A DNA stretch of 61,550 nt, filler included, from Hausera hauseri (lineage: Eukaryota): the NCBI GenBank assembly GCA_046269625.1. It is 8 parts of 8 records of this genome, joined end to end, with 100 filler letters (N's around TTAATTAATTAA, not from the genome) between each part and the next. Parts side by side here need not be neighbours in the genome. Positions count along the whole stretch, not along the records: positions 30,921 to 43,533 come from JBJURY010023341.1; 7 more parts are not named here. The stretch is one strand, 5' to 3'. Positions 8,847 through 54,366 of this stretch are shown here, piece after piece. The notes beneath the pieces are model-generated. The model was not told the DNA's origin. It worked only from the letters and a program-made list of their open reading frames with translations, and made no database searches. Both the position numbers and the translations under genes were made by a program. The first letter of the stretch is position 1, and every line of letters begins with the position of its first letter.

Positions 8847-11800
8847 TTATGGGCTTTTCGGAGAAAAACTGTTCAATTGAGAACTAGACGGCGCATATCC
8901 CGGCGTTATAGGTGAAAACGACGGCGATGTTGGACTGTAACTCAGATTTCCGGAATACTGAGCAGTAGCTGAAACTGTACTTGGAGAATTAGGAGAAAAC
9001 GCAGGTGATGTCGGAGTGTATCTAGGAGAAGCAGAATACGACAGTGAATATGAGGGAGATGCCACCGACCCATATCTAGGTGATGTTGGCGAATAGGATG
9101 GCGATGTAGCAGCCCTAGGAGAGTTTACAGAATAATTCGGCGAAGTCGGAGAATAATTCGGAGAAGTCGGGGAATAGTTAGGTGAAGTTGGCGAATAATT
9201 AGGTGAAGTCGGGGAATAATTTGGAGACGTTGGAGAATAATTGGGTGATGTTGGAGAATAATTTGGTGACGTTGGAGAATAATTTGGTGAAGTGGATGAA
9301 AAATTTGGAGAACTTGTAGAATAACTTCGAAGTGCAGGCGAAGATGGACTATAGTTCGGACTTGTCGGAGAATATCTTGTCGATGCCTGATTAAAAGAAG
9401 GACTATTTGGTGAATAAGAAGGACTGGCAGGAGAATATCCCACGGTTGACGAGCCTATTCTTGGCGAAGTTGGTGAATACGACGGTGACGTGGGCGAATA
9501 ATTAGGGCTAGTTGGACTGTAAGAAGGTGACGTCGGTGAATATCCAGGACTTGTGGGAGAATATGAAGGTGAAGTGGGAGAATATCCAGGACTTGTAGGT
9601 GAATAAGATGGAGATGTTGGAGAATAATTCGGGCTCGTTGGAGAATAAGACGGTGATGTTGGTGAATATCCAGGACTAGTGGGTGAATATGATGGTGATG
9701 TCGGTGAATAACCTGGACTCGTTGGCGAATATGACGGTGACGTTGGAGAATATCCAGGACTAGTTGGTGAATATGACGGTGATGTCGGTGAATAACCGGG
9801 GCTCGTTGGAGAATATGATGGTGACGTCGGTGAATATCCAGGACTTGTTGGAGAATATGTTGGTGAAATTTGAGAATAGCCAGGACTGTTTGGACTGTAA
9901 CCTGGACTGGATGCTGGTGAGTACCCACTGCCCACCGGACTCAATCCAGGACTGACCGGGTTCATACTGGGAGAAAATTTACTACTAAAACCGTAATCAG
10001 GTGTTTTGGGACTGAATCCTTGCATCGGACTGAACCCTAGGCCAAAACTGGGTGACATTCCCATTTCCGAATATCCGCCAGGCGAAAAAGCAGCCCCGTA
10101 TGCCGATGATCGTGGAGATGACCCAAATGGAGACAAGGAGTATTGCGACAATTGAGGAGAGCCGAATTGGACGGGCGTCGCACCTCCAACCATATACAGA
10201 TTCTGAGCCAATCCCGCCATCAAAGGTAGAGGCTGTGCCTCATTACATTTTTCATAGTTCATCAAAATGTCGAAACATCCGCTACCTATCTTGGCAAGCT
10301 GACCCAACATGATTGATTCGCTTACACCTTTCATTGGATCAACTTCTGCATGAGCCCCAGCTTCCATGAGGATGTCCACCGTTTCCTCGAATGACGACCT
10401 GGCCAAGGCGCCAGTTTCCTGTCTGTTAATACCATGTCGATCAATGGACATAAGATGGCCTTTGTGTGTCATTACTTCACACAACAACGCCAAATGTCGA
10501 TAATTGACGTATGAACCGTCGAACGATATAACATTGTACATTTCCCTTTCAATAGAACATCTAGCCGCCTCTATGCCGAGCGTTTCGAATATTTCCGTTA
10601 TGTGGTTACTCACAGTCCGCTCAGTGTCAATATCCCTTTCTGCAAGAACCTTCTGCAAACACGTTCCATCCGTCTCGACTAACCATTCAGGGATTGCAAC
10701 AAAACGTCCATCATAATCTTCAATAATCCGTTTTTTGTCATTGGACGTCGTCGGATAATGCAGATAGACACGAGATATCTGTGGAATGCCCTGCAAACAG
10801 ATCTCATCAAGAATTAAGTTCTCGATTAGTTCCAGATATTTTCTGTCCTCCATTGCCGTTTTGTCGTCATCACAATCTTCCTTCTTCAGCATACGAATTC
10901 GCAGTGTCAAATTCAGATTGTCATCGGGAATGTGGCAAATAATATCGTTGTGAAAATATTCGGTAATTTTCTCAGAAATAGTTTGCAGTGTAATTTTCTT
11001 ATCAGTCATTTTCTTTCTATTTAGCACAATACGCAGAAGGAATGGACTGATTTTCGTTACGTCAAAATCCGGTAACTCATAATATGTTCTTACCCAGTCC
11101 CTGTCCCTTTCTATAACGGAATTTTCCGGATCGGGATCGTAATAAATTTCAGATTTATACGCGATTTTTCGTAGAGTCGTGTGCTCCAATCGGGCTGCAA
11201 TTGACTTTGCCATTTCGGCATCCTTAGCAGCCTGACCAACCAAATAAACGGTAAGTGACGGTGTCTTTGGATTCCGACTGACGTTGATTATTTCCTTAAG
11301 TCGCGGTACACCTAAAGTAACGTTCTTAGCAGACACACCGGCGTAGTGAAAAGTATTCAGTGTCATCTGAGTAGCCGGTTCACCCAAACTCTCGGCGGCC
11401 AATGCGCCCACCATTTCTCCAGGATGAACAAGTGACCTGTCAAATCTCGTTTTGATCTCGCCAATAACCCACTCGAATGCTTTAGGACTCAGTCTATAGT
11501 CTTCAATGACTTTCTTGGAGCACAACAAACTTCTAAGAAGGCAACATATAAGCAACGTGGCGTTTTCGTTAGCAACTTTGCTCATCTTGTCATCACCACG
11601 AACGACTATTAATTGTGTACACAATCGACGGACTTCGTCGATGATATCCATTGGTGACAAATTCGACTTACCCAGTTTATCGATTTTGAATATCTTCTGT
11701 GCATTTATCACCAATCTAGTGATATTACAAGGAAGGACAACTCGTCCTTCAGTTACATACTTCAAAATTGATCTTATAGTCGCCCTGTCTTTTACAAGCT

Positions 11801-15564: not shown

Positions 15565-15664
15565 NNNNNNNNNNNNNNNNNNNNNNNNNNNNNNNNNNNN
15601 NNNNNNNNTTAATTAATTAANNNNNNNNNNNNNNNNNNNNNNNNNNNNNNNNNNNNNNNNNNNN
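15565..15664. other. artificial contig spacer
   Basis: same 100-nt N/TTAATTAATTAA linker. Confidence 0.99.
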
Positions 15665-22635: not shown

Positions 22636-22735
22636 NNNNNNNNNNNNNNNNNNNNNNNNNNNNNNNNNNNNNNNNNNNNTTAATTAATTAANNNNNNNNN
22701 NNNNNNNNNNNNNNNNNNNNNNNNNNNNNNNNNNN
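22636..22735. other. artificial contig spacer
   Basis: same 100-nt linker. Confidence 0.99.
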
Positions 22736-24921: not shown

Positions 24922-27900
24922 AACTCGGGCACCCTGCATTTTGGTGCCCGCCCTGCCGGGGCGGAGATCCCGACCGCCAACCCTGCGTTGGTCGGTCGGG
25001 ACGCACCTTCGACTTCGGCCCCAAATCACGGCCCCCAGGCCTACCACTGCTCCCCTCTCCATTCTTTTTATAACAACATTCACATATATACCCTTCATAA
25101 AACACACCCGCACATCCCCACCCTTCAGACCCACATTTCTATCCTTGGTTCTTCTGACTTCTATCTTAGCCATCACGGTACCATCATACATCTCAACGAA
25201 ACTACCTTTTTCAAATCACGCTTGCCTCAATATACATCTCCATATCCATGGTGGAATGAACTCCCCACCAACTATTGACACCACGGATACAACCACCACA
25301 AAAAAGCCAATACCCATTCTTTACTACTCCAAACCAAACCCTCCACCTTCTTCAATCGATGGAAATCCCCACAAAAATCCTTCAAATACTCCACACTGCA
25401 CTGAATACTTCATAGATAATGAAAAGTCCAGTAAAATGTGGCTTCACTTTCATCAACTCTGGCTAAAGTCTAATGGTATCACAGACTCCTTATCTAAAGC
25501 CACAGCTTACTCAATCGTCTTCCAAACTTTATAGAAGCCTAAATACATAACTTACTAGACATATTTCAACACCCTGACCCTTATACCCAATTATACGACG
25601 CTGTATTGAAACAGACCAAACCTTCAATTGACACCATAATGCAGCGTTTCTTTAATAAAAATACAATGGGGACACAAAAACCCACTGACTTCTTACGCAT
25701 CTCCTTAGCACACTTGCGTATTCTTGGCATCACTAAGGAACATAACCCGGATCTTCTACGCCATTATTTTCTGAATGCCCTACCCATCCAAATCCGGGCC
25801 CTTATCGTGGAGGGAGGCTCCACGCCGCTTGAAAAATTGGCCGAATTGGCCGATAGGACATATGATGTCCTATACAAATTCGCAACCAGTAGTTTCAGCA
25901 GTAGTTGCCACTAACGCCATTCAAACAACTAACACATCCATAGAACAGCAGCTTAATCAGCTACGTGCTGAAAATATTGCATTGCAACAACATCAATAAT
26001 AAATTAAATGAATTGTCTTTGTCCCGACGAAGGGGTTTTGCCGCTGACCGCGCCCGTTCCACGTCAAGAAACCGCTCACCATCGCCTGAGCGTTCGTCGA
26101 TCTAATATTACCACAGCAGATTTAACACTAATGCCCAGAAGTGTTGCCTAGGATGCAAGCTTTATAATCAGAAGTTTTCCTCGGACACCGTTATCAGCAT
26201 CTACCATGCAAGGTTCAAAAATCAAGCTCGTAAATGTCTTCCAGACTGCACTTTCAAATCCAACACAAATGACGGCCGTACTGCCTTTCCTTCTAATAGT
26301 CGTCCTAATTCACCTTTTCACAAATACTAATTTCGCTGGCAGAAGTCACGGCAAACTTTGGCAAAGGCACTACTTCACATTCTGAACGCCGTCACGTCTC
26401 CTTAGCTGTTTTCACTTTAAAGGCTGCAATCACTGCTCATACTACGCAATCTATTGACTTTCTTATTGACACAGGTGCAACGATTTCTCTATTACAGCAA
26501 ACCTTTCCTGTTCAAAACTTTCCATTCAAACTTAAGCCCTTATACACTGCTTCAGGCCAACCGCTGCACATCTCTGGCATGGTTAAATTATCCTTCACTC
26601 TTCCAATTTTTCAACACCTTTCCGCTGGACGTTCACAGTCCTAACGTCCAGTCGACAATTCTAGGATCTGACTTTCTTTCACAGTATAACCTACCGGTTG
26701 ACTGCAGCCAACGATGTCTCAGGAACGGCACCACTGGCCTCATTTCTGAGCATGTAAATAGCATTTCGACTACCGCGCAGTCGACCGGTATGCGAAAGTC
26801 AATATTAAAAAAGTCAATGAATAATTCAATTTTTATAACAATTCTGTTCGTAAATTTTTAAATAATAATACTGACATTCGATCAAAATTCAATGTCGACA
26901 ATTGTGGTACTGCTACAAACGTTCACTCATTCGACGAAAATACTTCAGCCAACACCATTTTCAATTCAACAATCTTGCACCAAATACCACTTGACTGCAC
27001 ATCATCTAACAACTCACAAATTGCATCTACTACTGTTCAAGCCGTTTCACCACTTTTACCGAATCTCTAACAGCTACCTATAACTTTACAACAGTTCATC
27101 AACACATCTTGCCCACGCGTACTTAAAAAAGACGGTACTTTTACTCCCGCAAACATCACCTTACATCACATAGTCACACAGCACCAACGTCCAATACGCC
27201 AAAAAGTACGGCCTCTGTCACCTCGCCGTAGACAGGCCGTAGAAGCCGAATTTCTTGAACTAGAACGTTCCGGAATAGTACGCCGTTCCAAATCTCCTTG
27301 GTCATCACCGTTACATGTCGTATAAAAAAGGACATTACCTTTAGACCATGCGGTGACTACCGACAGCTAAACAACTTGACTATCATGGACGCGTATCCTT
27401 TACCACTCATGAAGGATATCCTGCACCGTCTTAATTCAACCACCATCTATTTAACCATTGATTTAGCAAAAGCATACCATCAAATACCGGTAGCACCTGA
27501 AGACATAGAAAAAACTGCAGTAACTACTCCTTTTGGTCTCTATGAATACGTATTCATGCCATTCGGTTTGCGGAATGCCGCATAAACTTTCCAGCGACAT
27601 ATTGATTCAATTCTTTCAGATTTCTGGTTTGCGCACCCTTACACTGATGATATTCTGATCGTATCGTCTTAGGTTAAACAATACGAGGAACATCTTCACG
27701 CAATATTCTAACGCCTTCACCACTACAATCTCCAAGTCAATTTCGACAAATGGGTATTTCTTCAAAAAGCGCATTAACTTTTTTGGCCACGTTATCACAC
27801 CAGACAGCCATTCTCCCCAATCAGACCGAGTCGAAGCTCTTAAAAACATCCAATTGCCACGTACCACCACCGAAATGCGTAGCTTCCTTGGCACACTACA

Positions 27901-30312
27901 CTTTTTACATAAATACGTCCCATACTGCTCGGAATTAACAGCTCCATTCGCACACCTAAGCGTTGGCAAAAACATCAACCAATCTAGTAGACACCTAAAT
28001 TGGTTGACAAATTCGATAAGCTACGCGAAGGCATCAAAACCGTCGATATACTAGCTTTTCCCAAGCCTGATGCAAAACTTATCCTCACTACAGACGCCTC
28101 AACCACTGCAGTAGGAGCTGTACTCCACCAGATCTACAAGGGAAAAAATCAACCATTAGAATTTTTTTTCTCGCAAGTTGACAGCACCTGAAACCAAATA
28201 TTCCACGTTTGACCAAAATCTATTAGCAATCGTTCTCGCTTTAAAGCACTTCTCACACCTACTTGTCACTCGTCATTTTATTCTACAAACCGATCACAAG
28301 CCTTTACTTAACATCATGGCCATGAAACACCCTTCCACACGCCAAGAACGACAGATATCATACTTGTCGACATTTAACTTTGACATAAAACATATATATG
28401 GGGTTAATAATTTAATTGCCGACTTTTTATCTACGTCGGTTAGTTCGATTAATTTTTCACTGATTTTTACGCAAGCTCAACTTCAACAGAACCAGCCACC
28501 TCAGGACATGCTTAATTCTTTCAAGTCTTGCACAATTGTTGACGGCGTGGCTTTAAACACTTCTAAACCAGGTCAATCTGTAATAATTCTTGCACCACCT
28601 TTGCAAAGGCAAGCATTTAATAGTGTACATTTGCTACACCATCTTGGTGCTAAAGTCACTTCGTTTACTCCACCGACAAGTAGTTTGGTCGTCAATGCGT
28701 CCCGATGTACAGGCATGGGTTAAGGAGTGTGTGACTTGCCAAAAATACAAAACAACTAAGCATCGAAAGACACCACTATTCCACTTTCCTTGTACATCGC
28801 GTTTCGAATCCGTGCATACTGACATCGTCGGCCATCTTCCTGTAGACAATGGTCATCAATTTATTCTCACCATGATGGACAGTTCCTCGCGATGGCCAGA
28901 AGCCATCCTTCTGTGAAGCACAAATACCGAAACCATAGCAGACTTTTTTATTCGTACATGGATTAGCAAGTTTGAATCATCTCGCTTCACCATCACGGAC
29001 CAAGGTCCACAGTTTGAATCCAACCTGTTCAAATCCCTTGCTTACCGATTGAGAATCCATCACATACATACGACGCCTTATCACACCCAATCGAATAACC
29101 TCTTAGAACGTTTCCACCGAACATTGAAAGCATGATTTAGAATTCTTTCAGAGTCCAACATTAGTTGGACAAACCTTCCTCCGTTTGTTCTGCTTGGCTG
29201 GCGGAACACTCTGTACACTTCTACGGGATGCGCACCTACTGAAGCCTTATTCGGACCTCCTGTACGACGATTATTCGAATTAACTTCCATAGACGACACT
29301 GCTACAGATGAGACGATACGGGCAGTGCAAAACCACTTCGTTACGGTCAGCAGAGATTCGTTCTGCAGGTTACTTCACAAAGACAAAACAGATTTAATCG
29401 AAGACTTGTATTCGGCAAAATTCGTATGAATAAAAAATCAAACGCCGTGCGGTTTTCAGCCGCGGTATCTGGGGCCCTATAAACTGGTGCAACTACATTC
29501 GCATAACTCTATTATTTCTAAAGATGGCAAAGACCTTACTGTGCATATTACCAATTTAAAGCCTGCCTTTTTCGTCAACGGCACCTCACCACTTGACACG
29601 TCGACTTCTTTTCTAACTCATACACTTCCTGCTGGCCCTATATCTGTTGCTACACCTGTTCCCCCTTCTCATTTCGCTTCTAGTTCTGCTTCATCATTTT
29701 CTTTACTTTCTACTTCTGTTCCTATCTCTTTTCCTATTTCTACCACTACCTCTGTTTAACTTTCTACTTCTACTCTTTCGCCTAATACATTTCCAACCCC
29801 TATTCCAATTTCAGTCCCTCCTTCTTCATCCGTCACTACATCTTTTGCCAATCCTTTGTATTCTAACGTTCTCTCGAACACCCTCAATTATCCGTCTTCA
29901 ACTATTTCTCTTATTTCTTCATTTTCTTCTTCCCTTCTTCTGACTTGCTTTGCACGACATAACACCCATAACAAAATCTGACAATTTTTTACCCCAACTT
30001 CAAACTCTGCAGGCAAAAACATCGCATATAGACAAAACACGCAGATTCACATTTACTATACACAGCAGGGAAAAATCAGTAGAGGGCACCCAACGTCTTA
30101 TTCACACTAAGACCAAGTGATAGAAACATTTTTCCGTTTGGCCTTTTTGTTTCCGTTTATTTTGCTCTTTTATACTTTCAACTTCGCCACGAGTGGGGTA
30201 ATATGGTGCCCACTGCGGCCGGTGCCCTTTGGCCCATTTTGATTGGGCACGGTCGGGCGTTACGTTATCACCGCGACGGATCCATAGTCGGGTCCGATTT
30301 TTCGCCTCAAGA
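24922..30312 (+). mobile_element. decayed Ty3/gypsy (Mag-like) retrotransposon, gag-pro-RT-RNaseH-IN
   Basis: gag FLNALPIQIRAL..LEKLAELAD; protease FLIDTGATIS; RT PCGDYRQLN, IDLAKAYHQIP, MPFGLRNAA, YTDD; RNase H TTDASTTAVGAVL; integrase CVTCQ, HTDIVG, TDQGPQFES, ERFHRTLK; many frameshifts and stops. Confidence 0.92.
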
Positions 30313-30820: not shown

Positions 30821-30920
30821 NNNNNNNNNNNNNNNNNNNNNNNNNNNNNNNNNNNNNNNNNNNNTTAATTAATTAANNNNNNNNNNNNNNNNNNNNNNNN
30901 NNNNNNNNNNNNNNNNNNNN
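30821..30920. other. artificial contig spacer
   Basis: same 100-nt linker. Confidence 0.99.
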
Positions 30921-32518
30921 GTTTAGGGGGAATTTCTGGCAGAATTATGGCACAGAGGCGGCAGCGGTATCTGGATGAGTTGGCTGCACGTGAGGAGGAG
31001 CTAGATAGACGGGCTCGGTTGTCATACAGTCCACGTGAGAAGGAGAGAGATGAGGGATGGACAGAGGATCCAGGAGCTAGTGGGAAACATCGCACTAAGA
31101 CTAAACATCTGAGAGAGAGTAGAACTACCAATAGCCCGATGGAGAGACAAAACACACTGTTTATTGAGGGTTCATTGACGGGAACAGTCGAGGTAACAGA
31201 GGGGGTGCCTGAAAGGGGAGTGACAACAGGCAGGTTGAGGAGGCAGCCTGACAGGGGGCCGTCTGTTGGTCCAGGTAAAAAAGAGGTGAAATCAGCTCTT
31301 GAGGAGGAGGAGACGGAGACAGCGTCAGAATCAGATGCAGATAGGTACAGCATTGTGTCTCAGCTTCCTTTATTGAGTACTCAGGGACCAACGGGTGCAG
31401 TAGCAAATTACAAGCCGTTCCATGTACGTGATTTGGAGTCGATAACAGAGAAGCTGCCACCGTTAGCGCAAGGAGGAGGTCGATGGTTGGAGAAATTTAA
31501 TGCGCTCACATTAGGGGTGACCCTGGCATTGGGGGATCTGAATGCCATTTTTGCTCGATGTGCAAATCACGCCACAGTCGAGACGTACATGCACTCCATT
31601 GTAGCGACCGCTCGGGGTCGGTACAGAATATTAGAGTTACCTGATGATACTCCGTTGTGTGACGTATTTGTGCAACTCGCGCCAATCATAAGAACGCTGT
31701 ACCCATTGCCGGTCGGAGTAGCGGTTCCTGAATTCAGGTGGGATAGAACTGTAGACCCGTGGGAGTTTATGGAGCAATGTAAGGACACTTGGGAGAGGGT
31801 CACAGGTGTACATGCGCAGGCCATACAACAACGTCCGTATTTCAGAAAAGCTGTGCTGGACGCCCTGCCGAGAGAGGTCGTAGAAGAGTTGGAAAAGAAT
31901 GCTGATTTAATTACAGCATCCCCAGAGCGCTGGGAGAGAAATGTAATACATCGTTTAAACTATGAGAAAAAACAGAAAGACAAAGAGGCGGCTGAATTAG
32001 ACAATATGAAAGCCCAGCTACTTAAACTACAGCTGTTTGATGCCAGACATAAACAGAGTGATGATAAAAAGAACAAGGACAAAAAACAATTATCTGTTCA
32101 GTCAGTTGTAGAGGGAAATGACGAGGCAGTGACCTCTGGTACAGTTGCTCTGCAGCAGTGGTCGGAAACACAAGGCCGGTGGGCCAGAGGGGGACATCCG
32201 GTGAGAGGGACCGGACGGGGAAGAGGGGGTGCGAGATCACGACCGGTGTCATGGGGTTGGGGTGCTCCACAGTGGGGACAGCAGGGTGATGCCTGTTTCA
32301 TCTGTGGCCAACAAGGTCACTGGGCTAGAGATTGCTACTACCAGCCCACACCACCCCACAGGTCAAGAGGGGGCCAGCAGCCATTCCAACGGCACAGGGG
32401 CCCACCACCGCCTTTCTCTCATCAAATGAGGGGCCAACCACCGGTCCAGCAACCACAACAACCACAAGCCGGCCAGCCTCCTCTCGAGCAAGGGGGAGGA
32501 GGTTTCCAACAACAATGA
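30921..32518 (+). CDS. gag: ERV Gag, copy 1 (5'-truncated by contig start)
   Basis: CCHC knuckle CFICGQQGHWARDC, RG-rich NC region; frame open from contig start; colinear with copy 2. Confidence 0.93.
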
Positions 32519-35500
32519 GACACCCCACAGAAAATTATGAGTGTTGGAGGAGGGGCAGACCCAACACTCGAGGTGACAGTCAGAACAGAAAAGATGCAGT
32601 TTCTGGTGGATACAGGAGCAACATTTTCAACGATTACTCACACCCCACAGAACTGCGAACTGTTACCAAAGTCGGTGGAAGTTGTTGGATTTTCTGGGGC
32701 TAGACAAAGACTGCCGGTGACACGTCCGCTTGTCACAAAAGTGGGCACACAGACTCTGTTACATCCCTTTGTGGTAGCTGAAAATGCACCAGCGAACCTT
32801 TTAGGGAGAGACCTTCTCATCAGACTGGGAGCTTCAATTTTGTGCTCTGCAGATGGACTTGTGGTGAGGTTGCCAGATGGCACCTCCCTGGAGTGCGGCA
32901 TGGTCACCACTAGCCACTCTCAGTGTGTGATCCAACCTGTCCATGATGAATATGTTGACATCTACTGGGGGCTGCTGGAACCTGAGGTCATGGGTGGAGG
33001 GGGTGTTTATTCTGCCTACCTGGTGTGGAAGCCCTGGCTCCTGACTTTACATCCATACTCCGCCCCCCCTGACCCCCCTCATGTCACCCTCTTTTATGAT
33101 CGACGGGGAGATGAAGTGTTTCAAGACCACTTTGCAGAACAACTGGCAGGGAAAATCTGGCCTATTGATAGTGGGAACATTGTTGTGGGACGTGAGGGGG
33201 TGGCTGCTATAGTTAACTTAACATCTGAGCAAGAGGGGTGGTACAAGATGGGTGCAGAAGCAGTACCCCACATTTCATTAGCCTTAAATCCAAAGTTTCA
33301 GGCTAAAGACTTAGGGCCGATGGTAAAGAGGGCCTCAGGGGCCTCAGATTGGGTACAAACACCCTTGAAATACGTCTGGTACTCCCACAGCTGTGAGTGT
33401 TATTCAATCGGCTCTGAAGCACATGATGCAGTTTTGATGCAGCATGAGGTGCTCCCCAGAGAACACGGTCGTGAACTGACTGATCACCCGCTTGCGAGCT
33501 CTTTAATTGATAGTATGCCAGGGTCGTTGTGGTCAGAGGGACCCACTGATGTGGGACTGATAAACTGCCCTCCCATAACTTTCCAGGTGCAACACACATA
33601 CCCAATTTGGCTCACACAGTATCCACACAAACCGGCTGCAGAGATGGGCGTCGCAGAAACTATTCAGGGTTTAAAGGCCAGTGGAGTCCTTGAGCCTTCT
33701 TACTCTGAGTGGAACACACCTATCCTACCTGTACAAAAACCAGGTACAGACAAATTCCGTATGGCGCACGATTTGAGGGCGATTAATAAATTATTGATCA
33801 CTCAGACTGTACCTGTTCCCAACCCATACGTGGCATTAAATAATTTGACCCCAAAACACGAATGGTTCAGCTGCCTGGACCTTGCGAACGCATTTTTCTG
33901 TCTTCCCTTAGCTGAAGAGTGCAGGGACATTTTTTCATTCACCTTTCGTGGTGAACAGTTGCGATACACAAGATTACCACAGGGGTTTGCGCTGTCGCCT
34001 GGGATCTTCAACCAAGTGTTAAAGCAAGTTTTGTGTGAGGTAATGCTCCCACCAGACACAGTACTTGTGCAGTACGTGGATGACCTGCTCATCGCTAGTC
34101 CTACTGCACAAGACTCACTGGAAGCGACACAGAAAGTGTTAGAGCATTTACACGCAGCAGGTTTTAAAGTCAGTAAGAACAAACTGCAGCTGACAAGGCG
34201 ACAAGTGTCATTTTTGGGGAGAATGATCTCGCAGAAGGGGGCGGGACTCTCCTCTTCTCACCGCGACACAATTTTACATCATTCAAAGCCAGAGACAGTT
34301 AAAGAAATGATGTCATTTCTGGGGCTGACGGGGTACAGCAGAAATTACATTCCAAATTATGCAGGCCAGACCCAGGTTTTGCGCGCTTTGGTTAAAGAAC
34401 AGGGCATGAGAAACCCCACTGCCAGGCTGGTTTGGAATGAGGAAGCTGAGAGGACTTTCATTGAGGTGAAACAACAGATGAGTAGAGCCACAGAGCTGGC
34501 TTTGCCTGATTATGGTCGGCCTTTCTATTTGGATGTTTCTGAAACAGAAGGGGTTATTAACGGTGTTCTGTTTCAGAAACATGATGGGGGAAGAAAGGTT
34601 TTGATGTATGTCAGCTGTTCATTGGATAACACAGAGAGGAGACATCCACCGTGCACACAACACGCAGCTGGACTGGCTAAGCTGGTTCAGAAGACAGCTC
34701 ACCTGGTGATGGGACACACACTGCATGTTTTGACATCTCATAGTGTAGTGGCCTTTGTGAACTCACATAACTTCACCATGTCACCATTAAGACAAGAAAG
34801 AATAAACAAGGTCTTGGAAGCACCTAATTTGTTATTCACACATGAAGGGATCAACATGGCAGACAGGATAGGTGGAGGAGAACTGCATGTCTGTGAAAAG
34901 AGAGTGGAGGTTGACGACAGAGTCAGACCAGATTTAAAAGCTGCACCTCTTGAAGAGGGACAGGTGATGTTCTGTGATGGGAGTTGTTTCAGGGCCCAGG
35001 ATGGACAGCTCAGTGCAGGTTTTGCGGTGGTGCTTGAGACAGACCAGGGCTATCACACTGTAGTTAGCGAGAGATTACAGGGATCTCAGTCGGCGCAAAG
35101 AGCAGAAGTGAGGGCCTTAATTTCAGCACTAAGATGGGCGGAAAGCAAGAAAGTGACGATTTTCACAGACTCAGCTTATGCCTTCGGGGCGGCACATGTA
35201 GAACTAGGACAGTGGAGGAGAGGAGGTTTTCTGACAGCAAATGGGAAACCTATCAAACATGAAGCAGACATGAGAGAATTAGAAACAGCGTTAATGTTAC
35301 CAGCAGAAGTTGCCATTGTGAAGTGCCGAGGTCACGATTCAGAGTCATCAAACACAGCAAGAGGAAACTGTCAGGCGGATCTGGAGGCGAAGAGAGCCTC
35401 AGGATTCATCAGTTGGAGTCAGATGGTCATGGTAACACCAGAGGAAGAGGATGTGATCAGATGGGATGAAGAAACCATCGCCTGTTGCCAACAGGGCGCA

Positions 35501-36634
35501 GCACCGGAGGAAAAGGCTGTGTGGACTGACCGGGGAGCTGAAAAAAGACCAGATGGACTGTGGATAAACCCAGAGGATGGAAGATGGGTGCTCCCACTGA
35601 GTCTGAAGAGGAGAATTTTCGAAGAAGCCCACGGGTTGGCTCATGTAGGGGTACACCAGATGAGGAGGAATGTCCACAACTGGTGGCACCCGTATATGAA
35701 CTCTTTGATTCGAGCGTTTGTCAAAGAATGCACGTTATGCAATTTGTATAACTCCAAGCCAACTTTAAAACCGCGTGAGCAAGGCAAATTTCCTACGAAC
35801 ATGACACCAGGTCATGAGGTAATAATTGATTACACTGACATGATTCAACCAGCAAGGGGATTCAGATACCTACTGGTTTGCGTTGACGCGTTCACGGGAT
35901 GGCCAGAAGCCTGGCCAGCTAAAAAGGAAGATAGTCAAACTGTGATTAAGTGTTTGATAAATCAGTACATCCCCAGACATGGGTTCCCTACAACAATTAG
36001 GTCAGATAATGGTACTCATTTCAAAAATGCAGATCTGCAGAAAGTTGAAAAGGCCCTGGGTTTGAAACATGCATTTGGGACAGTTTATCACCCACAATCT
36101 CAAGGGAAAGTGGAACGACTAAATAGAAATCTGAAACAAAAATTATCAAAAATCTGTGCACAGACAAATTCTAATTGGCTAGATGCTTTACCAATTGCCC
36201 TTATGGCAGTGAGGGCCTCTGTTAACAGAGGGACGGGTTTCACCCCGTATGAACTGACCACAGGAAGGTCGTTCCCAGGGCCACAGCAAAATATAGAGTG
36301 GCCCACAAAACAGGTATCTGAAATGACACACAAAATGTACATTGATACACTAAGAGGTATGTTGTCCAGTTTCGCTCTACAGATTCCTGAATCCAGTACT
36401 GAGGACGAGGTGAGGCCCACGTGTCCACTCTCAGATTGGGTACTTCTGAGAGTCATTAAGCGAAAGTGGGCGGAGCCACGGTGGACGGGTCCATATGAAG
36501 TAACAGAACGCACTTCATATGCAGTACGCTTGAGAGGTAAAGGTTCCACGTGGTTTCATCTCAGCCAGTGTGCACCAGCTGCTGAACCACAAAGATCGTT
36601 GCAGCAGGTCCGGTCAGACCTACAACATCAGTAG
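32519..36634 (+). CDS. pol: ERV Pol (protease - 2H-phosphoesterase-like insert - RT - RNase H - integrase), in frame with gag after one UGA
   Basis: FLVDTGA and NLLGRDLL; WNTPILPVQK, LDLANAFF, LPQG, YVDD; FCDGS, SAQRAE, TDS; HGLAH...CTLC, IDYTD, SDNG, GKVERLN, WTGPY; uninterrupted 1365+ codons. Confidence 0.97.
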   Translation, partial: DTPQKIMSVGGGADPTLEVTVRTEKMQFLVDTGATFSTITHTPQNCELLPKSVEVVGFSGARQRLPVTRPLVTKVGTQTLLHPFVVAENAPANLLGRDLLIRLGASILCSADGLVVRLPDGTSLECGMVTTSHSQCVIQPVHDEYVDIYWGLLEPEVMGGGGVYSAYLVWKPWLLTLHPYSAPPDPPHVTLFYDRRGDEVFQDHFAEQLAGKIWPIDSGNIVVGREGVAAIVNLTSEQEGWYKMGAEAVPHISLALNPKFQAKDLGPMVKRASGASDWVQTPLKYVWYSHSCECYSIGSEAHDAVLMQHEVLPREHGRELTDHPLASSLIDSMPGSLWSEGPTDVGLINCPPITFQVQHTYPIWLTQYPHKPAAEMGVAETIQGLKASGVLEPSYSEWNTPILPVQKPGTDKFRMAHDLRAINKLLITQTVPVPNPYVALNNLTPKHEWFSCLDLANAFFCLPLAEECRDIFSFTFRGEQLRYTRLPQGFALSPGIFNQVLKQVLCEVMLPPDTVLVQYVDDLLIASPTAQDSLEATQKVLEHLHAAGFKVSKNKLQLTRRQVSFLGRMISQKGAGLSSSHRDTILHHSKPETVKEMMSFLGLTGYSRNYIPNYAGQTQVLRALVKEQGMRNPTARLVWNEEAERTFIEVKQQMSRATELALPDYGRPFYLDVSETEGVINGVLFQKHDGGRKVLMYVSCSLDNTERRHPPCTQHAAGLAKLVQKTAHLVMGHTLHVLTSHSVVAFVNSHNFTMSPLRQERINKVLEAPNLLFTHEGINMADRIGGGELHVCEKRVEVDDRVRPDLKAAPLEEGQVMFCDGSCFRAQDGQLSAGFAVVLETDQGYHTVVSERLQGSQSAQRAEVRALISALRWAESKKVTIFTDSAYAFGAAHVELGQWRRGGFLTANGKPIKHEADMRELETALMLPAEVAIVKCRGHDSESSNTARGNCQADLEAKRASGFISWSQMVMVTPEEEDVIRWDEETIACCQQGAAPEEKAVWTDRGAEKRPDGLWINPEDGRWVLPLSLKRRIFEEAHGLAHVGVHQMRRNVHNWWHPYMNSLIRAFVKECTLCNLYNSKPTLKPREQGKFPTNMTPGHEVIIDYTDMIQPARGFRYLLVCVDAFTGWPEAWPAKKEDSQTVIKCLINQYIPRHGFPTTIRSDNGTHFKNADLQKVEKALGLKHAFGTVYHPQSQGKVERLNRNLKQKLSKICAQTNSNWLDALPIALMAVRASVNRGTGFTPYELTTGRSFPGPQQNIEWPTKQVSEMTHKMYIDTLRGMLSSFALQIPESSTEDEVRPTCPLSDWVLLRVIKRKWAEPRWTGPYEVTERTSYAVRLRGKGSTWFHLSQCAPAAEPQRSLQQVRSDLQHQ

Positions 36635-36780
36635 AGGCGGAAGCAAACACCTGAGAGCTGGAGGGAGGAATCTGCGCGAGGCAGCAGTGAGCTGGAAAAT
36701 TGCCTCTTGTCCGGAGGGGTGCTGTGTAAAGAGTGGAAGACCCGTCGTTTGCTTAACCCATTGAGGTTCTTGTGAAAAGA

Positions 36781-36896
36781 AATAAAAGGCAGCAGAAAAC
36801 GCTGGGAATGAAGTCCCCTCTGTTTTGGCCAAAAAAGCTTGTGTGAAAATAAAAGGCAGCAGAAAACGCTGGGAATGAAGTCCCCCTGTGTTGGCC
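36781..36896 (+). repeat. ~50-nt direct repeat, two copies, between pol and env
   Basis: AATAAAAGGCAGCAGAAAACGCTGGGAATGAAGTCCCC at 36781 and 36848. Confidence 0.9.
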
Positions 36897-37454
36897 TAAT
36901 ATGCAGCAAGAGGAGTTGAGCTGCTGTTTTCTCTGAGGCCCCCAGAAGCAGGGGCCAGAGCACGGAAGACGCCGTCACAGAAGAGGAGACCTCCTGTGTT
37001 TCAACCAGGAGGTGCTGCATCCAGGCATCCAGTTAAACTCTGAGAGGAGCACAACCGAGAGTTTAAAACAGTGTTCTGGTTTTAATTAAGGGTGTGCATT
37101 TTGTCCAACTTTTGAACTAACAGTGTTGATATAACGAAGTACAAGTTTTCTGTAGTATATCATTTAATTTAGTAGACTTACAGGGACTTCAGTTAGACTA
37201 GTCTGTTAACCGTGCATGCATTTTGAATTAATTTTGCTTTACAGGTTTACAAGGGTTGATTTTTGAGTTGTTTTTTAACAAAAAAAAAAAAAAAAAAACA
37301 TTGTGTATAATCAAGTGGTATTTTATGTGACAAGTGTCTGGACTTTCTGCACTTGTTAATTGATGTTGGGTTGACATTTACACTGAAATTCTGGTATATT
37401 CAAGGTGTACACAGATCTGATAACTCTCATTTACAGGGTGTGGTGAGAACAAAC

Positions 37455-38915
37455 ATGGTTCTCATATCAAATAAGATGTTGACAGCAGGAGGGGTAATAA
37501 TGGGAATTATGATTTTTCTTGTTTTGGTGATGGAGTTTTTCTGTGTGATTCCAGGGCTTAGGCGGTGTCGACCCAGTCCTCAGAGGGCCAAGCGAGAGGG
37601 CCCGAGGATGGGGGTGTGGTCCCAGGTGCGGGATATTGATCAGTTACCGTTGAATTTGTCACACGCTTTCCAAATGAACAGTTGGTATCGGTATGCTCAA
37701 TTTTTGGCCAGGGGGCGTCATGATTCTGAATGTTATGTCTGCACCAAACTTCCTGTCACAGCTTCACATTTGCCCCTGCGTGTTAAACCCCTGGACCGGG
37801 GGCTGTCATTTTGTTTTATGCAGTACAGTTCTCGTGGTTATGGGAGGGAGCCACAGAGGTGTAAGGCCAAGCGATACGAGCTAACACAAGCAGCACAGAT
37901 GGTGGTGTTAAGTCAATTTGTGGAGTGGACCTCTAATGAGCAGTTTCCCATTTGTGTGCACCGACAACATCATCAGGACACTTATCAGGTGGCTGTGGGC
38001 TCACTGCCTCCTGAGAAGTGTCAGGCGGTGTATCACCCTGGGAATCATCACATTGGGGTACCTGGACGTAATGGAACATTTCCTGTTGAGGATCTGGCTT
38101 GGTTGTGTGGACATGCAGTATTGTTAACTCTCCCCTCTAATTGGACAGGTCTCTGCGCTCCTGTGGCCGTCACAGACGAATCGTTTCTGGTGTCTTTAAG
38201 TAATGGTTCCCATTATGTTAGGCAAAGAAGAGCTGTTGACGTCAGGCCGCATGACTCGATGTGGGGTTCAGACGTGCCTCAAAATTTTAAGCACTGGACG
38301 ACAGGTGAAAAGGTCATGCTTTCACTATTTCCTTGGGCTGGGGTTGGTAAACTCCTGTTACGTGTTGAGACTCTGGATTACCGCTTTGGAATTTTCATTA
38401 ACTCGACTATTAAAGCACTGGAGGGCATTTCGGCTGAATTGTCTGCTCTGAGGGTGATGGTTTTACAGAATAGAATGGTTTTAGATCTGTTAACAGCATC
38501 CAGAGGAGGAGTGTGTGAGGTGATTGGGGGGGATGCGTGTTGCACTTACATCCCGGATGAGAGTGGTACAGACCCTCAGGCTAGGGTGTCAGAGGCTCTA
38601 TCACAGCTTAGGGGGCTCAGGGAGGCAAAGACAGGTGATCCTCCTGCAGGATCGTTGGAGTTGTTTTCTTGGTTTACGAGTGGTTCTTGGAGTCAGGTGA
38701 TGGTCAAGATTTTGGTCCCTCCTTTGGCTATTTTGTTTCTTTTTTGTGTCTTGATGGGGTGCGTTGCACCGTGTGCAAAGATGGCTGTCTCTCGAATGAT
38801 TAGATCTGATGCAGTCGTGGGGACGGGGGCTGTGTGTCCTGTGATGCGGGCCAGCGAGGAATCCTCATCATCAGACCGCGATCACCTGCGACTGGCTGAG
38901 ACAAAGTATCTGTAG
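37455..38915 (+). CDS. env: ERV envelope glycoprotein (gamma-type class I fusion protein)
   Basis: ATG 37455 follows acceptor-like CTCTCATTTACAG; hydrophobic leader, SU CYVC, furin site RQRR, ISD LQNRMVLDLLTASRGGVC, C..CC motif, TM anchor. Confidence 0.93.
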   Translation: MVLISNKMLTAGGVIMGIMIFLVLVMEFFCVIPGLRRCRPSPQRAKREGPRMGVWSQVRDIDQLPLNLSHAFQMNSWYRYAQFLARGRHDSECYVCTKLPVTASHLPLRVKPLDRGLSFCFMQYSSRGYGREPQRCKAKRYELTQAAQMVVLSQFVEWTSNEQFPICVHRQHHQDTYQVAVGSLPPEKCQAVYHPGNHHIGVPGRNGTFPVEDLAWLCGHAVLLTLPSNWTGLCAPVAVTDESFLVSLSNGSHYVRQRRAVDVRPHDSMWGSDVPQNFKHWTTGEKVMLSLFPWAGVGKLLLRVETLDYRFGIFINSTIKALEGISAELSALRVMVLQNRMVLDLLTASRGGVCEVIGGDACCTYIPDESGTDPQARVSEALSQLRGLREAKTGDPPAGSLELFSWFTSGSWSQVMVKILVPPLAILFLFCVLMGCVAPCAKMAVSRMIRSDAVVGTGAVCPVMRASEESSSSDRDHLRLAETKYL

Positions 38916-38962
38916 TCTCCAACGTGGGATTGGTCTATCTTTTGATAGACCAAGAGAGGGAT

Positions 38963-39972
38963 TGAAGAATTTAATGTCTATCTTTTATTATTTTCTATCC
39001 AGACTGAATTGTCATGCGATAAAGTGTGTGTGTACGTGTCTTTCTTTAAAGGGTTTCACTATACTCAGAGACCTAAAATTAGTTAACAGATTAATCTACT
39101 ACATATATATAATCACACTTTAGTTAGTCCAAGTTTTAAATCAACATTCTAATATAATTACAAGCTAAAGCAAAGGAGCAAGGAGTCAGGTAAGATACTT
39201 ACTACTTCATTCCATCATTTTAATCACAACTACATGTCAGCTTATGTTTTAAATTACTTTACTAATACATTAGAAATAGCAGCACAAATATTAAGCTAAT
39301 AGTAGATTGCAAGTAGTAGTGACATTATTAACTAAACTACACTAAGAACATTAGATTACTAAAAAACCAGGGTCACGGTATCAGTCTCCAAGTGAAACAC
39401 TTCATGTGTGAAAAGACCACAGCTGCAGCTAAGGGAGGGGGTTGGGTAACTCACTAAACTTCTAAACAAATATAGCATTAAAGGGTTATCAATTAACAAC
39501 ACTTAAACATATTATAGGTAATAATAATTAACAGACATTAATTATTATTATAACAAATTAACACACAAATGGTGTAACGCCAATAAGGCCGAATAAATAC
39601 GTTAACTTAAAAACACAAATGAAGTGATCTCAGTAAAAGTCATAGAACATCGTTATCTATGGAATGTAGACATTTTTACGGCCTTGACGGGCAGAGAGGC
39701 ACTGTCTCCAACGCAAACTAACCTCTTAACCAATCAGATGCCTACACTCCTAAAAACAGTGATAAAACCCAGAAACACAAAGACTCCATCGAGCATTTGT
39801 TGGCAGAACTCATCTGATCAGGTCGGTTTTAAATGCTCCTGTATGCATACACATCTGTGTTCATTTGTGATGGTTTAACTCTGTATACTTGTAACCCCTG
39901 TGTTCAATAAATCTTTTAAACTAAGGTGCTCGTCTCAGCTGTTTTGAACACGATCAAGTGCCTGCCACTTCA
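38963..39972 (+). repeat. ERV LTR (~1010 nt)
   Basis: TGAAG...CTTCA termini; PPT AAGAGAGGGA just upstream; CCAAT 39730, TATA-like GATAAAA 39761, AATAAA 39906. Confidence 0.9.
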
Positions 39973-39975
39973 ACA

Positions 39976-39993
39976 TGGTGACCCCGATCGTGC
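39976..39993 (+). promoter_or_regulatory. primer-binding site, tRNA-Trp
   Basis: TGGTGACCCCGA(T)CGTG versus canonical Trp PBS TGGTGACCCCGACGTGAT; splice-donor-like AG|GTAAGC at 40074. Confidence 0.88.
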
Positions 39994-41292
39994 AGCGAGG
40001 CGCACTGTTGGCTGATTGGAACGAGTGATTGGTGTTCACACGCAGACGAAAGGGCCCTACAGGAAAAACGAAGGTAAGCTGGATACCTGGCCTATACAGG
40101 TCCGAATTTCTCAGCTATTTGGCCGTAAACCAAATTTTTTAGCGTCTGTGTGTGGATTCTGACCATCTCCGGAAATAAAGGTGGTTATTTAAGTTAATAC
40201 AGCGATTAGTGACGTTTCTGTCGCTGGGGTTACGTTTATACAGACCGGGTGCGCGCAGCACGCTTCGTGCGTGTGCGTGTGGGTTTCTCACGGCTTTGCT
40301 GCTTGTATGCGCTGTCTTTTTCTGTTTTATTAGTTAGTTACACGGCCTGGGGTCGTGTACCAGGTGTTTGGAACACGCTGGAGTAAACGCATTTCCCTTG
40401 CTGCGCACTGGCGAGAAACCGTCCCTCTGACGAGAGAGGCGTAATGATCTGGGATCGAGCTCCGGCCACGTCATCCGGGGGGAGGATTGCGGCACCCTGC
40501 TTTGACGTAATTTTGTAGTTTAATTAAAGGGAAATGCAAAAAAGTCTGGGACTTTTAGATCAGTTTTGACCTAAATTTCTATGGTCTGGGACCATTTTAG
40601 TTGTAGGGCTTCACTTTCTTCTTCATTTTTGCCGTGGTTGGTGGTTGTTTTTGGTTGTGCTGTGGACGTGAGAGACGTGAGGCAGAGGGCTGCAGCGTGT
40701 GGACAGCACAAAGAAAAAAAAAAAAAAAAAAAGAGGGGGTTTGGTGACGTCAGAGAGACATTTTGTGTGTGCGCGCCTCAAACAGAGAGTGTCTCTGTGT
40801 GAGTGTCTCTCTGCGGGTGTCTGCGCATGTGTGTGAGTGCTGCTGGAGTCTGTGTGTGTGTCTTGGTTTGTGTGGATGCGTGCCTCTGTCTTGATGTTTG
40901 TGACTGCTGTGTGAGAGAAAAGGGTAAAAAGGGGGGAGTGATTCTCTCTCTCTGCGTGTCAGCGTGCCTGGAGGTCGAAGGGGAGATTTTTTTCCCTTTT
41001 CCTCTGTGTGTGTGTGTGAATCTAACGGAGCCTACCTCGGCCGACTGTGTGTGAAGTTATTTTTTCTTTTTTTTCTTTTCCTTTCCTTCAGTGACCTGGC
41101 ATTGAAATAATACTGATGTGAGTGGGGCATCCATAGCCTGACCACAAGGGGGCGCTGTTGTATAAGGCAGATACAAGTCTGGAAGTTGGCTATTCTGACA
41201 CCAGATTTGTGACTGCATTGTCACAATAGAGCTAGAAGTGACTGATAATAAAACAATTTGAGTGTCTGGGGAAGGGTGAGTGTGTCTAAAAG

Positions 41293-42528
41293 ATGGAGCT
41301 CATAAATAAGAAACAAGTGAGTCCTGTGGAAACTTTACAGGAACAAGCAAAGAGAGTCACAGCTGTGATCAAAGTGATACATGCAGCGAATACAGGAAAA
41401 TGCAGAGAGTTGGAGAAACTTTTAGCCCAGCTGATCCAAGCTGAGGAAAACTCCTCAGAGACGCTTACACAACTAGTTTGGGATAAAGTTAAAGGACAAA
41501 ACAAACAAATTCAGGAACTTAATGAAGAATTGCTGACCTCCAAATCATTTATAACGCGCCAGAAAATAGAAAAAAAACAACAGACACGCAGACAAATACA
41601 GGCAATGTATGAACAATTAGCATTACTCTGTCAGAGTGTACAAAACTTGGGTGAAACAGAAAAAAGTGATCCACCGCCTTATCCAGCAGAAAGGATTGAA
41701 CCAACGGCGCCACCTGCTGGACTTTATCCTGTGTTGCAAGAGCAGAAAGGCAGAGTATCATTTGAGGAGACAGATGCTGAGGAAGGGAATCAGGACAGTG
41801 ATTTAGGAGGAATTTCTGGCAGAATGAGGGCACAGAGGCGGCAGCGATATCTGGATGAGTTGGATGCACGTGAGGAGGAGCTTGACAGACGGGCGCGGGT
41901 GTCATACAGTCCATGTGAGAGGGAGAGAGATGAAGGATGGACAGAGAGTCCAGGAGCTAGTGTAAAACATCGCACTAAAACTAAACATCTGAGAGAGGGT
42001 AGAACTACCAATAGCCCGAGGGAGAGACAAAACACACTGTTTATTGAGGGTTCATTGACAGGAACAGTCGAGGTAACAGAGGGGGTGCCTGAGAGGGGAG
42101 TGACAACAGGCAGGTTGAGGGGGCAGCCTGAAAAGTGGTCAAATGTTGGTCCAGGGAAAAAAGAGGTAAAATCAGCTCGTGACGAGGAGGAGACTGAGAC
42201 AGCGTCAGAATCAGATCCAGATAGGTACAGCATTGTTTCTCAACTTCCTTTATTGAGTACTCAGGGACCAACAGGTGCAGTAGCCAATTACAAGCCGTTC
42301 CATGTGCGTGATTTGGAGTCAATAACTGAGAAGTTGCCACCGTTAGCACAAGGGGGAGGCAGATGGTTGGAGAAGTTTAATGCTCTCACATTAGGGGTGA
42401 CCCTGGCATTGGGGGATCTGAATGCCATTTTTGCTCGATGTGCAAATCATGCCACAGTCGAGACGTACATGCACTCCATGGTAGCGACCGCTAGGGGTCA
42501 GTACAGAATATTAGAAATACCTGATTGA
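41293..42528 (+). pseudogene. gag: ERV Gag, copy 2 (N-terminus intact, truncated inside capsid)
   Basis: 41801 onward aligns without gaps to 30921 onward (offset 10880); PPPY at 41671 and PTAP at 41701; homology ends abruptly at ~42526. Confidence 0.92.
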
Positions 42529-43362
42529 GAAATAAAGTAACAGAAATACATGTCGACATAATACATGATTGGTCAATGATAAGTCATATGATTAGTTAAC
42601 TGCAAAAACCATATGATTAGCGCAAAATAAACTTTGCCACCAGCTACACCTCCCAGTATTCGAGTTTAGATCTTTGAAACAATAGCAGACTTGAAGCATT
42701 TTTGAAGATAAGTACAGAAATAAGTTTTCTAACACTTTTTTCTGCACAGATTCTGAGGACAGCTGTGTGTCTGGGAAAGAGTCCAAGGTAACCCACAGAA
42801 ACACGCCCACATATACTGACATTTGCTTTTAAAAGACTAATATTGTTCTCTGTTTATTTACTGAACCCAGGAGGTGAAGGAGGAGGAAGCGGAAAGAGAT
42901 GAGATGAAGGAAGCCATGAGGGCATGAAGAGTTTCCTAAATGCAGAAATGTTGAAGACATAAAAACGTTTTCCATGCACACCTCAAAACAACTGTTCTAA
43001 CATCTTAATGCTAATCCTGCATGGCAGCGATGCCTCTGTGGAGGAAACCACATCTGGGTGCATATTTACAGAAAAGGTACAAGCAAATGACATGAAAATG
43101 TATGCTTTTATGTAGTTATTCAGCAAATCAGTGGTTATTTAACAGTTACATGCAGTTATTCACCGTTATTCAGCAAACATCTGTAGTTGTTCAGCATTAT
43201 TCAGGAGATCTCTGTAGTTATTAACCGTGTAGTTATTCGGCAAACACATTTTGAGTCTGCCTGTGAGTGAGCTCTATCCTCTGCAGTGATCTCTGATATT
43301 TCAGGATCAGTGATTAAACTGAAACCAAAGTGCATTCCTCTCTGGTGACGGACGCCACTCAC

Positions 43363-43533
43363 CCGTCTGCGACAGAACGGTAAACCTTGCGCGATGATGT
43401 TGATGCTAAAGATCTTGAGTACTTTCTGGGGCGGTAACGATTTGGAGGCGATGTCCTTGGGGTCTTTCAGGTCCAAGGCCTGGCTCTCCTGCGGGACGCG
43501 TACAGCCTTCTCCTTCTCAGTGGCAGCATTTGG
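43363..43533 (-). CDS. fbxw7: FBXW7 gamma-isoform-specific exon (5' part cut by contig end)
   Basis: ...DLKDPKDIASKSLPPQKVLKIFSINIIAQGLPFCRRR followed by phase-0 donor GTGAGT; resembles vertebrate FBXW7-gamma ...VMKIFSISIIAQGLPFCRRR|MKRK. Confidence 0.88.
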
Positions 43534-43633
43534 NNNNNNNNNNNNNNNNNNNNNNNNNNNNNNNNNNNNNNNNNNNNTTAATTAATTAANNNNNNNNNNN
43601 NNNNNNNNNNNNNNNNNNNNNNNNNNNNNNNNN
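43534..43633. other. artificial contig spacer
   Basis: same 100-nt linker. Confidence 0.99.
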
Positions 43634-47588: not shown

Positions 47589-47688
47589 NNNNNNNNNNNN
47601 NNNNNNNNNNNNNNNNNNNNNNNNNNNNNNNNTTAATTAATTAANNNNNNNNNNNNNNNNNNNNNNNNNNNNNNNNNNNNNNNNNNNN
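47589..47688. other. artificial contig spacer
   Basis: same 100-nt linker. Confidence 0.99.
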
Positions 47689-47699
47689 TTGTCATATTG

Positions 47700-48672
47700 T
47701 AGTTATTGCTTATGTAGTTTATTATTATTTCTATTCCGGAATGGGATAGCATAATTGGCATTGCTTTATTATTTCTTCCTTCTTATCCGTTAGTATCCAT
47801 ATCTTGCTTGTTCTTGTCTTTAATATGCCATTTCCTATTAAAAATTTCCAATGCTCTTTCTTTGAGGTGTCCTCTTTTATTTTTTCAATTTCTTTGCTGC
47901 CTCATTAATATGAATATGCTTTCGTTGCTTCAACTGTGTTTATCCTCCTAGTCTTGATCTTATGTGTTTTGGCCTCTTCGTGAGCTAAAAAGCATTGGCT
48001 GCATGTGCCGAAATTGGTCCGGCATAACATGTCGGCGTTTGCGTGATTTGTTCCTTTCCTGTATTTTAGTCTTATGTCTGAACTTGACAGATAGTTTATC
48101 CAGGTTTGGAATTGTGCTGTTATCGGCTTTTTTGTTTTCAACATGAAGGTAATGACCTTGTGATCCGTTCTCAGTGTAAATCTTCTTCCATACAAGGAAT
48201 GATTAAAATGTTGACTGAAGTAGTAGCCAGCAACTCCTTCCGTGTAATTCAATAGCCATTTTCGCGATTATTCATTCCGTGTGATTCGTATACAATCACT
48301 CTTCTATGCCCGGTGCTGTTTTTCTGTGATAATACTACTCCAATCGTATCGTAGCTGGCATCTGTGTCCAGAATAAATTCCTTCTTGAAGTCTGGAAACC
48401 CCTGTATTGGTGGGGACGTCAAAGCCATCTTCATTGCTTCAAATGCTTCGTTGCAAGACTCGATCCATACCAATTTTTGTTGTTCGGTCCGCACATCTGT
48501 TCTAATGCATTAGCTTTTGTGGCGTATCCTTGAATTAATCTCTTGTAGTAATTGTAAATCCCTATAAAGTTTCTCAGATTTTTTACACATTTTGGTTTCT
48601 CCAACGATCTGATGGAGTTCCAGCTTGGATGGATCCGTTTGTATTCCTTTGTTATTCAGAATGTGGCCTAAG
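47700..48672 (-). mobile_element. Ty3/gypsy pol fragment (RT thumb and RNase H)
   Basis: LGHILNNKGIQTDP, FILDTDASYDTIGVVLSQ, FTLRTDHK, YRKGTNHANAD; stops and frameshifts. Confidence 0.9.
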
Positions 48673-54266: not shown

Positions 54267-54366
54267 NNNNNNNNNNNNNNNNNNNNNNNNNNNNNNNNNN
54301 NNNNNNNNNNTTAATTAATTAANNNNNNNNNNNNNNNNNNNNNNNNNNNNNNNNNNNNNNNNNNNN
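54267..54366. other. artificial contig spacer
   Basis: same 100-nt linker. Confidence 0.99.

Follow-up and report, generated by a model that had tools for sequence, protein, structure and literature searches.

The window in this study, i.e., the whole stretch of 61,550 nucleotides of Hausera hauseri DNA that was analysed, consists of joined contigs that are separated by seven identical spacers (44 N, 12 bases, 44 N; 7077-7176, 15565-15664, 22636-22735, 30821-30920, 43534-43633, 47589-47688 and 54267-54366). The contig at positions 30921-43533 carries a class I endogenous retrovirus (ERV) of the fish type, whose features are collected in Table 1. Traits of the SSSV/ZFERV-like class I fish retroviruses were found in it, namely an in-frame UGA between gag and pol, a gamma-type Env (TLV_coat; for the comparison see PMC9967133) and an MLV-like reverse transcriptase (RT), which is closest to the gammaretroviral RT. 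The TGA that closes gag is in frame with pol and is likely to be read through; a UGA at the gag-pol junction was reported for SSSV and ZFERV and a UAG for WDSV (PMC13517186). The sequence-only reading had described an intact fish ERV with an uninterrupted frame. The pol frame is indeed open across all of its residues, as is that of env, but the start of gag and the 5' LTR lie beyond the N gap at 30821-30920, and thus "intact" holds for pol and env only. A blastn search revealed no second copy of the LTR in the window.

Table 1. Features of the endogenous retrovirus and their positions in the window.
Feature	Positions	Strand	Details
gag	30921..32518	+	5' part missing beyond the N gap; one CCHC zinc knuckle; closes with TGA 32516-32518
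pol open frame	32519..36634	+	1371 residues, stop-free; order PR - 2H domain - RT - RNase H - IN
Retroviral aspartyl protease (PR)	32558..32890	+	Residues 14-124; Pfam RVP E 1e-9; XMRV protease E 1.8e-8
PR/2H linker	32891..32935	+	Variable, predicted disordered; Gln-x-hydrophobic putative cleavage site, residues 135-137
CNPase-like 2H phosphoesterase domain (predicted)	32936..33454	+	Residues ~140-312, ~173 residues
First catalytic motif (putative), H-V-T-L-F-Y	33080..33097	+	HxTxx-aromatic; within PHVTLF
Second catalytic motif (putative), H-I-S-L	33269..33280	+	Within PHISLA
2H/RT junction	33455..33499	+	R-x-H-G-R-E-x-x-D-H; fixed length, conserved; without conserved cleavage-type site
Reverse transcriptase + RNase H, gamma/epsilon-like	33500..35398	+	Pfam; MLV RT Z 34.8 from residue 328
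Integrase (IN)	35594..36580	+	Pfam Integrase_H2C2, rve, MLVIN_C
env open frame, gamma-type TM	37311..38915	+	534 residues stop to stop; Pfam TLV_coat E 1.6e-8
Polypurine tract + LTR + primer-binding site (PBS)	38952..39993	+	LTR ~38963-39975; PBS from 39976, TGG start

The PBS at 39976-39993 may correspond to a tRNA-Trp primer site, and priming by a half-tRNA was rejected, as the site begins with TGG. Downstream of the LTR, the stretch 39976-42528 holds the PBS, a leader and a second gag copy at 41290-42528, which has the start that is missing in the first one, is 92.4% identical to it over 724 bases and ends early at a stop. The two gag copies either stand in tandem or result from different copies that were collapsed in the assembly. 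The sequence of the element was matched in 23 listed runs, none of which was RNA, and at least half of the words were found in 16 of the 23; no relative was found in viral_contigs.

Between the protease and the RT lies a stretch that has no counterpart in the XMRV and MLV proteins. The similarity to the XMRV protease stops at residue 124 of Pol, MLV RT residue 24 aligns to Pol residue 328 and, based on the comparison with the MLV RT, the RT fold begins at residues 321-328. The extra residues claimed in the sequence-only reading thus exist and number ~175-185, and the folded domain is slightly wider than the proposed 32954-33440. The two histidine motifs were located exactly as claimed, with the His codon of PHVTLF at 33080 (residue 188), that of PHISLA at 33269 (residue 251) and a spacing of 63 residues. 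These are the only motifs of this kind in the whole Pol; of 20,000 shuffled versions of the insert, 38 contained a pair with a spacing of 50-110 residues. Two H-x-(T/S)-hydrophobic motifs are the signature of the 2H superfamily.

An AlphaFold2 model of the domain, which was built from a 17-row alignment, had a mean pLDDT of 85 and placed both motifs on strands of a two-lobed 2H fold. Every PDB match listed by Foldseek was to CNPase or to the RICH protein of goldfish (best E 6e-7), and the proposed 2H fold was thereby borne out by prediction. When the model was compared with 48,161 representative chains, CNPase was found with a Z of 16.5 (rmsd 3.9, 169 aligned residues, model 16-188 on chain 160-378), and the next-best chains were drCPDase (8.4) and an archaeal 2'-5' ligase (8.2), followed by Acb1 (7.9), MHV NS2 (7.6), USB1 (7.6), AKAP18 (7.1), VP3 (6.8) and the penguinpox cGAMP PDE (6.4); the 21 chains with Z of at least 5 were all of the 2H type, as judged in part from their titles. 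In a second structural comparison, CNPase reached Z values of up to 17.3, the fungal Trl1 kinase-CPD 12.2 and NS2 7.9. Moreover, the nearest clusters in the ESM Atlas were annotated tRNA_lig_CPD (0.96, 212 of 256 features shared), while the best of the remaining clusters scored 0.83. The closest structural neighbours of the domain are therefore CNPase and the Trl1 CPD. The sequence-only reading had set the domain beside NS2, VP3 and Acb1, but the group of 2',5'-PEs (eukaryotic-viral LigT: NS2, VP3, AKAP7), Acb1 and the poxvirus cGAMP PDE lies about nine Z units below CNPase. The viral enzymes among them (MHV NS2, rotavirus VP3-CTD, Acb1 and the penguinpox cGAMP PDE) share the 2H fold and its motifs with the ERV domain, which appears to sit on a different branch of the fold.

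The likeness to vertebrate CNPase (PF05881; 2xmi, 1woj; RICH 2i3e) extends over the whole domain fold, with 165-169 residues aligned, the two Hx(T/S) motifs and an aromatic residue at +5 of the first motif. Unlike CNPase, the viral domain has no N-terminal kinase-like domain, is ~40 residues shorter, has its own 63-residue spacing between the histidines and is located inside a viral polyprotein; the identity in structural alignments is only 13-14%. The fungal Trl1 CPD (PF08302; 6u05) is accompanied by ligase and kinase modules, which the ERV lacks. In Pfam, nothing better than 2_5_RNA_ligase2 (E 0.015) was found for the domain, neither PF05881 nor PF08302 matched it or any of 35 homologues and searches of the PDB with the single sequence or a profile returned no match. 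Since no profile match was obtained, we do not file this CNPase-like domain as a member of either Pfam family; the link to CNPase is one of fold, and because sequence comparison alone does not make it, it does not imply an origin from the host CNPase. A further trait of this clade is the base-stacking motif HxTxxF, which is present in CNPase and ThpR and absent from AKAP18 and USB1 (PMC4201822); the ERV domain has Tyr in place of Phe, and HxTxxY/F was found in 132 of 156 homologues. The insert is thus a two-histidine domain that is predicted to fold like CNPase and the Trl1 CPD.

A search for homologues at E ≤ 0.001 yielded 271 cluster representatives, the best 150 of which were listed. Both motifs were intact in 95 of the 112 homologues that cover both, and the putative catalytic residues ranked among the best-kept columns of the domain (His188 in 147/151, Thr190 in 142/154, Tyr or Phe at +5 in the 132 noted above, His251 in 150/158 and Ser/Thr253 in 153/158). 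These figures, which agree with the expectation that the motifs would be conserved among relatives, are inflated since the homologues were picked by their similarity to the domain, and decayed copies were included. The named homologues came from hosts of many teleost orders and from the ray Narcine bancroftii, the closest ones being from teleosts. The mean identity to the query was 41% for the domain (n=46), 41% for the protease (n=34) and 56% for the RT (n=42), i.e., the domain has been kept across the retroviruses of teleosts and cartilaginous fish about as well as the protease. Additionally, the distances of the domain and the RT co-varied (Mantel r 0.79, 0 of 2000 permutations, 38 sequences). 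Among 185 homologous proteins with the domain, both flanks were recognised in 63, all of which had the order PR-2H-RT, 94 were shortened on at least one side and 28 had an unrecognised or deleted flank.

Selection was assessed from sequence variants. In the contigs of four runs, the domain showed 35 differences, of which 24 were synonymous and 11 non-synonymous, and none of the 35 alters a putative catalytic residue. The share of synonymous changes exceeds the expected 22-30% (p ≤ 3e-6) and corresponds to an omega of about 0.13-0.20, which points to purifying selection, although these variants are not independent events because the contigs stem from multi-copy families. In the wider stretch, where 40 of 133 differences were listed, the synonymous to non-synonymous counts were 6:1 for the protease, 13:7 for the domain and 11:2 for the RT.

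The two junctions of the domain differ in their anatomy. The linker to the protease is variable in both sequence (16.5% mean identity) and length (SD 3.6, 36 sequences), and in a 700-residue model of PR-2H-RT, residues 130-142 in this linker were the sole internal stretch with a pLDDT below 50. The WDSV protease prefers Gln at P2, while retroviral S1 sites prefer large hydrophobic residues (PMC3185560, PMC2790309); in the linker, Gln was found at residue 135 in 44 of 75 sequences and a pair of large hydrophobic residues at 136/137 in 56 of 75. The junction to the RT (residues 313-338) showed 47% identity, a pLDDT of 81-92 and a fixed length (61-62 residues between the anchors in 39 of 45, SD 1.1), and the best hydrophobic pair occurred in at most 17 of 77 sequences. 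The last strand of the CNPase fold, which runs to residue 312, spans the expected start of the MLV RT (~305). As this junction is fixed in length, ordered and without a conserved cleavage-type site, the domain is probably not released from the RT, and the mature product is likely to be a 2H-RT-RNase H protein from which the protease has been cut off. The earlier proposal of a protease-released, virion-packaged enzyme is thus retained in part: the cut from the protease at the Gln-x-hydrophobic linker and the packaging as part of Gag-Pol are both likely, but the domain likely stays on the RT. Some details of the element itself depart from this pattern, as its 2H/RT junction contains L320-T321, which a protease could cleave, and the upstream P1 residue is Cys and not aromatic; the Gln rule, which was taken from the WDSV protease, is also loose at the RH/IN junction of this family. 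The pTM of the PR-2H-RT model was 0.69, so the packing of the domains is not fixed by it. This anatomy predicts a larger RT with three activities.

The presence of such domains in fish retroelements, which the sequence-only reading had mentioned, is already in print. PMC9503650 cites Mazumder 2002 for 2H domains of fish retroviruses, and of WDSV, and PMC4977317 cites Basta 2009 for epsilon-like ERVs of fish that carry CNPase or macro domains. The domain described here resembles these, as it is also a 2H domain (a type that Basta et al. named CNPase) of an epsilon-like fish retrovirus. In the review literature, however, such domains are called additional open reading frames, whereas that of this ERV is in frame inside Pol. 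No 2H domain is mentioned in the consulted parts of PMC3185748, PMC8672886 and PMC9967133, and our literature searches, which ran without the originals of Mazumder 2002, Basta 2009, Fodor and Vogt 2002 and Holzschu 1995, turned up no experiment on the function of any 2H domain from a retrovirus. The domain is real, conserved and probably an enzyme; its presence by itself is an unremarkable find, and the predicted function is directly testable.

A Foldseek search of the viral structure library BFVD with the domain returned three entries with E < 0.001. The top match was the 2145-residue Gag-Pol Q2VF30, which we take to be that of SSSV (27% identity over the domain, 46% over the RT). The other two were the Env polyproteins of the walleye viruses WEHV1 and WDSV (Q9WHI8 and A4GTG3), with TM scores of 0.62 and 0.61, 14-17% identity and a high rmsd. 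The WDSV Gag-Pol matched the PR-RT model, yet was not among the 50 listed matches of the domain, and a WDSV domain in Pol was dropped as the BFVD matches place the fold in Env. In WDSV and WEHV1, a CNPase-like fold therefore seems to lie in Env, in contrast to the in-frame position inside Pol in this ERV; the location in Env comes from the Foldseek matches, since the sequence search gave no Env-borne copies among its 82 matches. No Env family was found in the 16 homologous proteins that were scanned, those with odd flanks included; P0250 and P0251, which are among the sequence matches and also carry an Env family, are probably joined gene models. A different addition was seen in P0008, a gene model of Garra rufa, whose Gag-Pol carries the 2H domain and, in its last 140 residues after the integrase, an OARD1/TARG1-like macro domain (E 9e-34).

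We consider it somewhat more probable than otherwise (about 0.55) that the domain is an active 2',3'-cyclic phosphodiesterase, borne by the virion and attached to the RT, that clears the products of host RNases. It would be made within Gag-Pol by read-through of the UGA and packaged with Pol, as is usual for retroviruses, and, judging from the junctions, the viral protease would cut off PR and leave 2H-RT-RNase H. The domain may then hydrolyse 2',3'-cyclic phosphates, on RNA ends or on free nucleotides, to a 2'-phosphate and a 3'-OH, as its clade suggests. In the least certain step, it might remove cyclic-phosphate products made from viral RNA by metal-independent RNases of the host and so blunt RNA damage or sensing. 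CNPase and the Trl1 CPD open 2',3'-cyclic phosphates to 2'-phosphates, CNPase yielding 2'-NMP, and CNPase can substitute for the CPD of the yeast tRNA ligase (PMC4201822). Because the fold groups with this clade, 2',3'-cyclic phosphates are favoured over 2-5A or cGAMP, and the placement narrows the candidate substrates, but the assignment is tentative as 2H enzymes readily switch substrate. The earlier guess at cGAMP-type messengers or 2',3'-cyclic-phosphate RNA ends thus keeps its second half, with the first remaining as a rival. The loss of OAS in most teleosts, on which it was premised, found no confirmation in the consulted part of PMC6307210, which lists an OAS of the elephant shark, and the domain also occurs in a ray. 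If the domain acts on cyclic-phosphate RNA products, this would hint at the host defence behind its capture and might inform the physiological substrate of vertebrate CNPase (PMC4201822).

A nuclease for immune messengers, i.e., 2-5A or cGAMP-type dinucleotides, would be a frequent role for a viral 2H domain (PMC9503650, PMC8406329) and would suit delivery in the particle, and NS2, VP3, Acb1 and the poxvirus PDEs do turn up in the fold searches. Their Z values of 6.4-7.9 against the 16.5 of CNPase and the scores of only 0.77-0.79 for the Acb1 and LigT clusters in the ESM Atlas make this role unlikely here; furthermore, the enzymes that cut 2-5A form the eukaryotic-viral LigT group, which was reported not to cleave cGAMP (PMC8406329). 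The seamless, conserved join to the RT and the domain order shared by the 63 homologues with both flanks recognised would fit an aid to replication, in which the domain repairs the ends of a damaged primer tRNA or of a nicked genome to a 3'-OH, allowing reverse transcription to begin or continue; CNPase chemistry leaves a 3'-OH and acts on tRNA halves in yeast (PMC4201822). We regard this service to the RT as equally improbable, given that the TGG lies directly after the LTR, as in ordinary priming by 3'-CCA, that no kinase or ligase partner was found in the element with Pfam, that MLV-type RTs work without the domain and that the 2'-phosphate may hinder extension. The apparent location of the fold in the walleye Env also indicates that attachment to the RT is not essential everywhere and weakens an RT-specific role.

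Two other possibilities are considerably more doubtful. Some 2H proteins act as binders, and the tight join to the RT would agree with a domain that binds RNA or is a structural appendage of this enzyme and has no catalytic role, but the histidines and Thr/Ser would hardly then be expected among the most conserved columns, which leaves this a long shot. Marginally less credible still is an enzyme for Appr>p: the macro domain of P0008 and the CNPase or macro domains reported in fish ERVs (PMC4977317) would speak for it, but such a macro domain was found in only 1 of 201 proteins and nowhere in the window, and the plant Appr>p CPDase reached a Z of only 7.3-7.9.

Returning to the cyclic phosphodiesterase, the common thread of the copies in Pol and, if that location is right, in the walleye Env is their presence in the particle, and the role may be that of a virion cargo rather than a service to the RT. 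It is conceivable, albeit improbable, that a captured CNPase-type enzyme is loaded into virions by these two routes, with the RT here and with Env in the walleye viruses, and destroys 2',3'-cGMP together with cyclic-phosphate RNA ends. RNase T2 and PLD3/4 make 2',3'-cGMP, the natural ligand of TLR7 pocket 1, for which 3'-GMP is far weaker; the consulted part of the same paper mentions neither 2'-GMP nor CNPase (PMC11470960). The low probability that we assign to this extension reflects that a core-bound enzyme would have to survive and work in the lysosome. If true, it would represent a viral antagonist of a class of nucleotide ligands that NS2, VP3 and Acb1 do not cover, and an RT that carries its own domain for healing RNA ends.

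Other observations in the window concern its remaining contigs. In the contig that precedes the ERV, broken pieces of a Ty3/Gypsy-type pol (RT, RNase H and integrase) were read by eye at 27659-29759, and a small RT/RNase H-like remnant with ~30% identity to the ERV Pol lies on the minus strand at 48261-48619. Tandem arrays with a period of 21 bases were present at 9081-9971 and 60597-60980.
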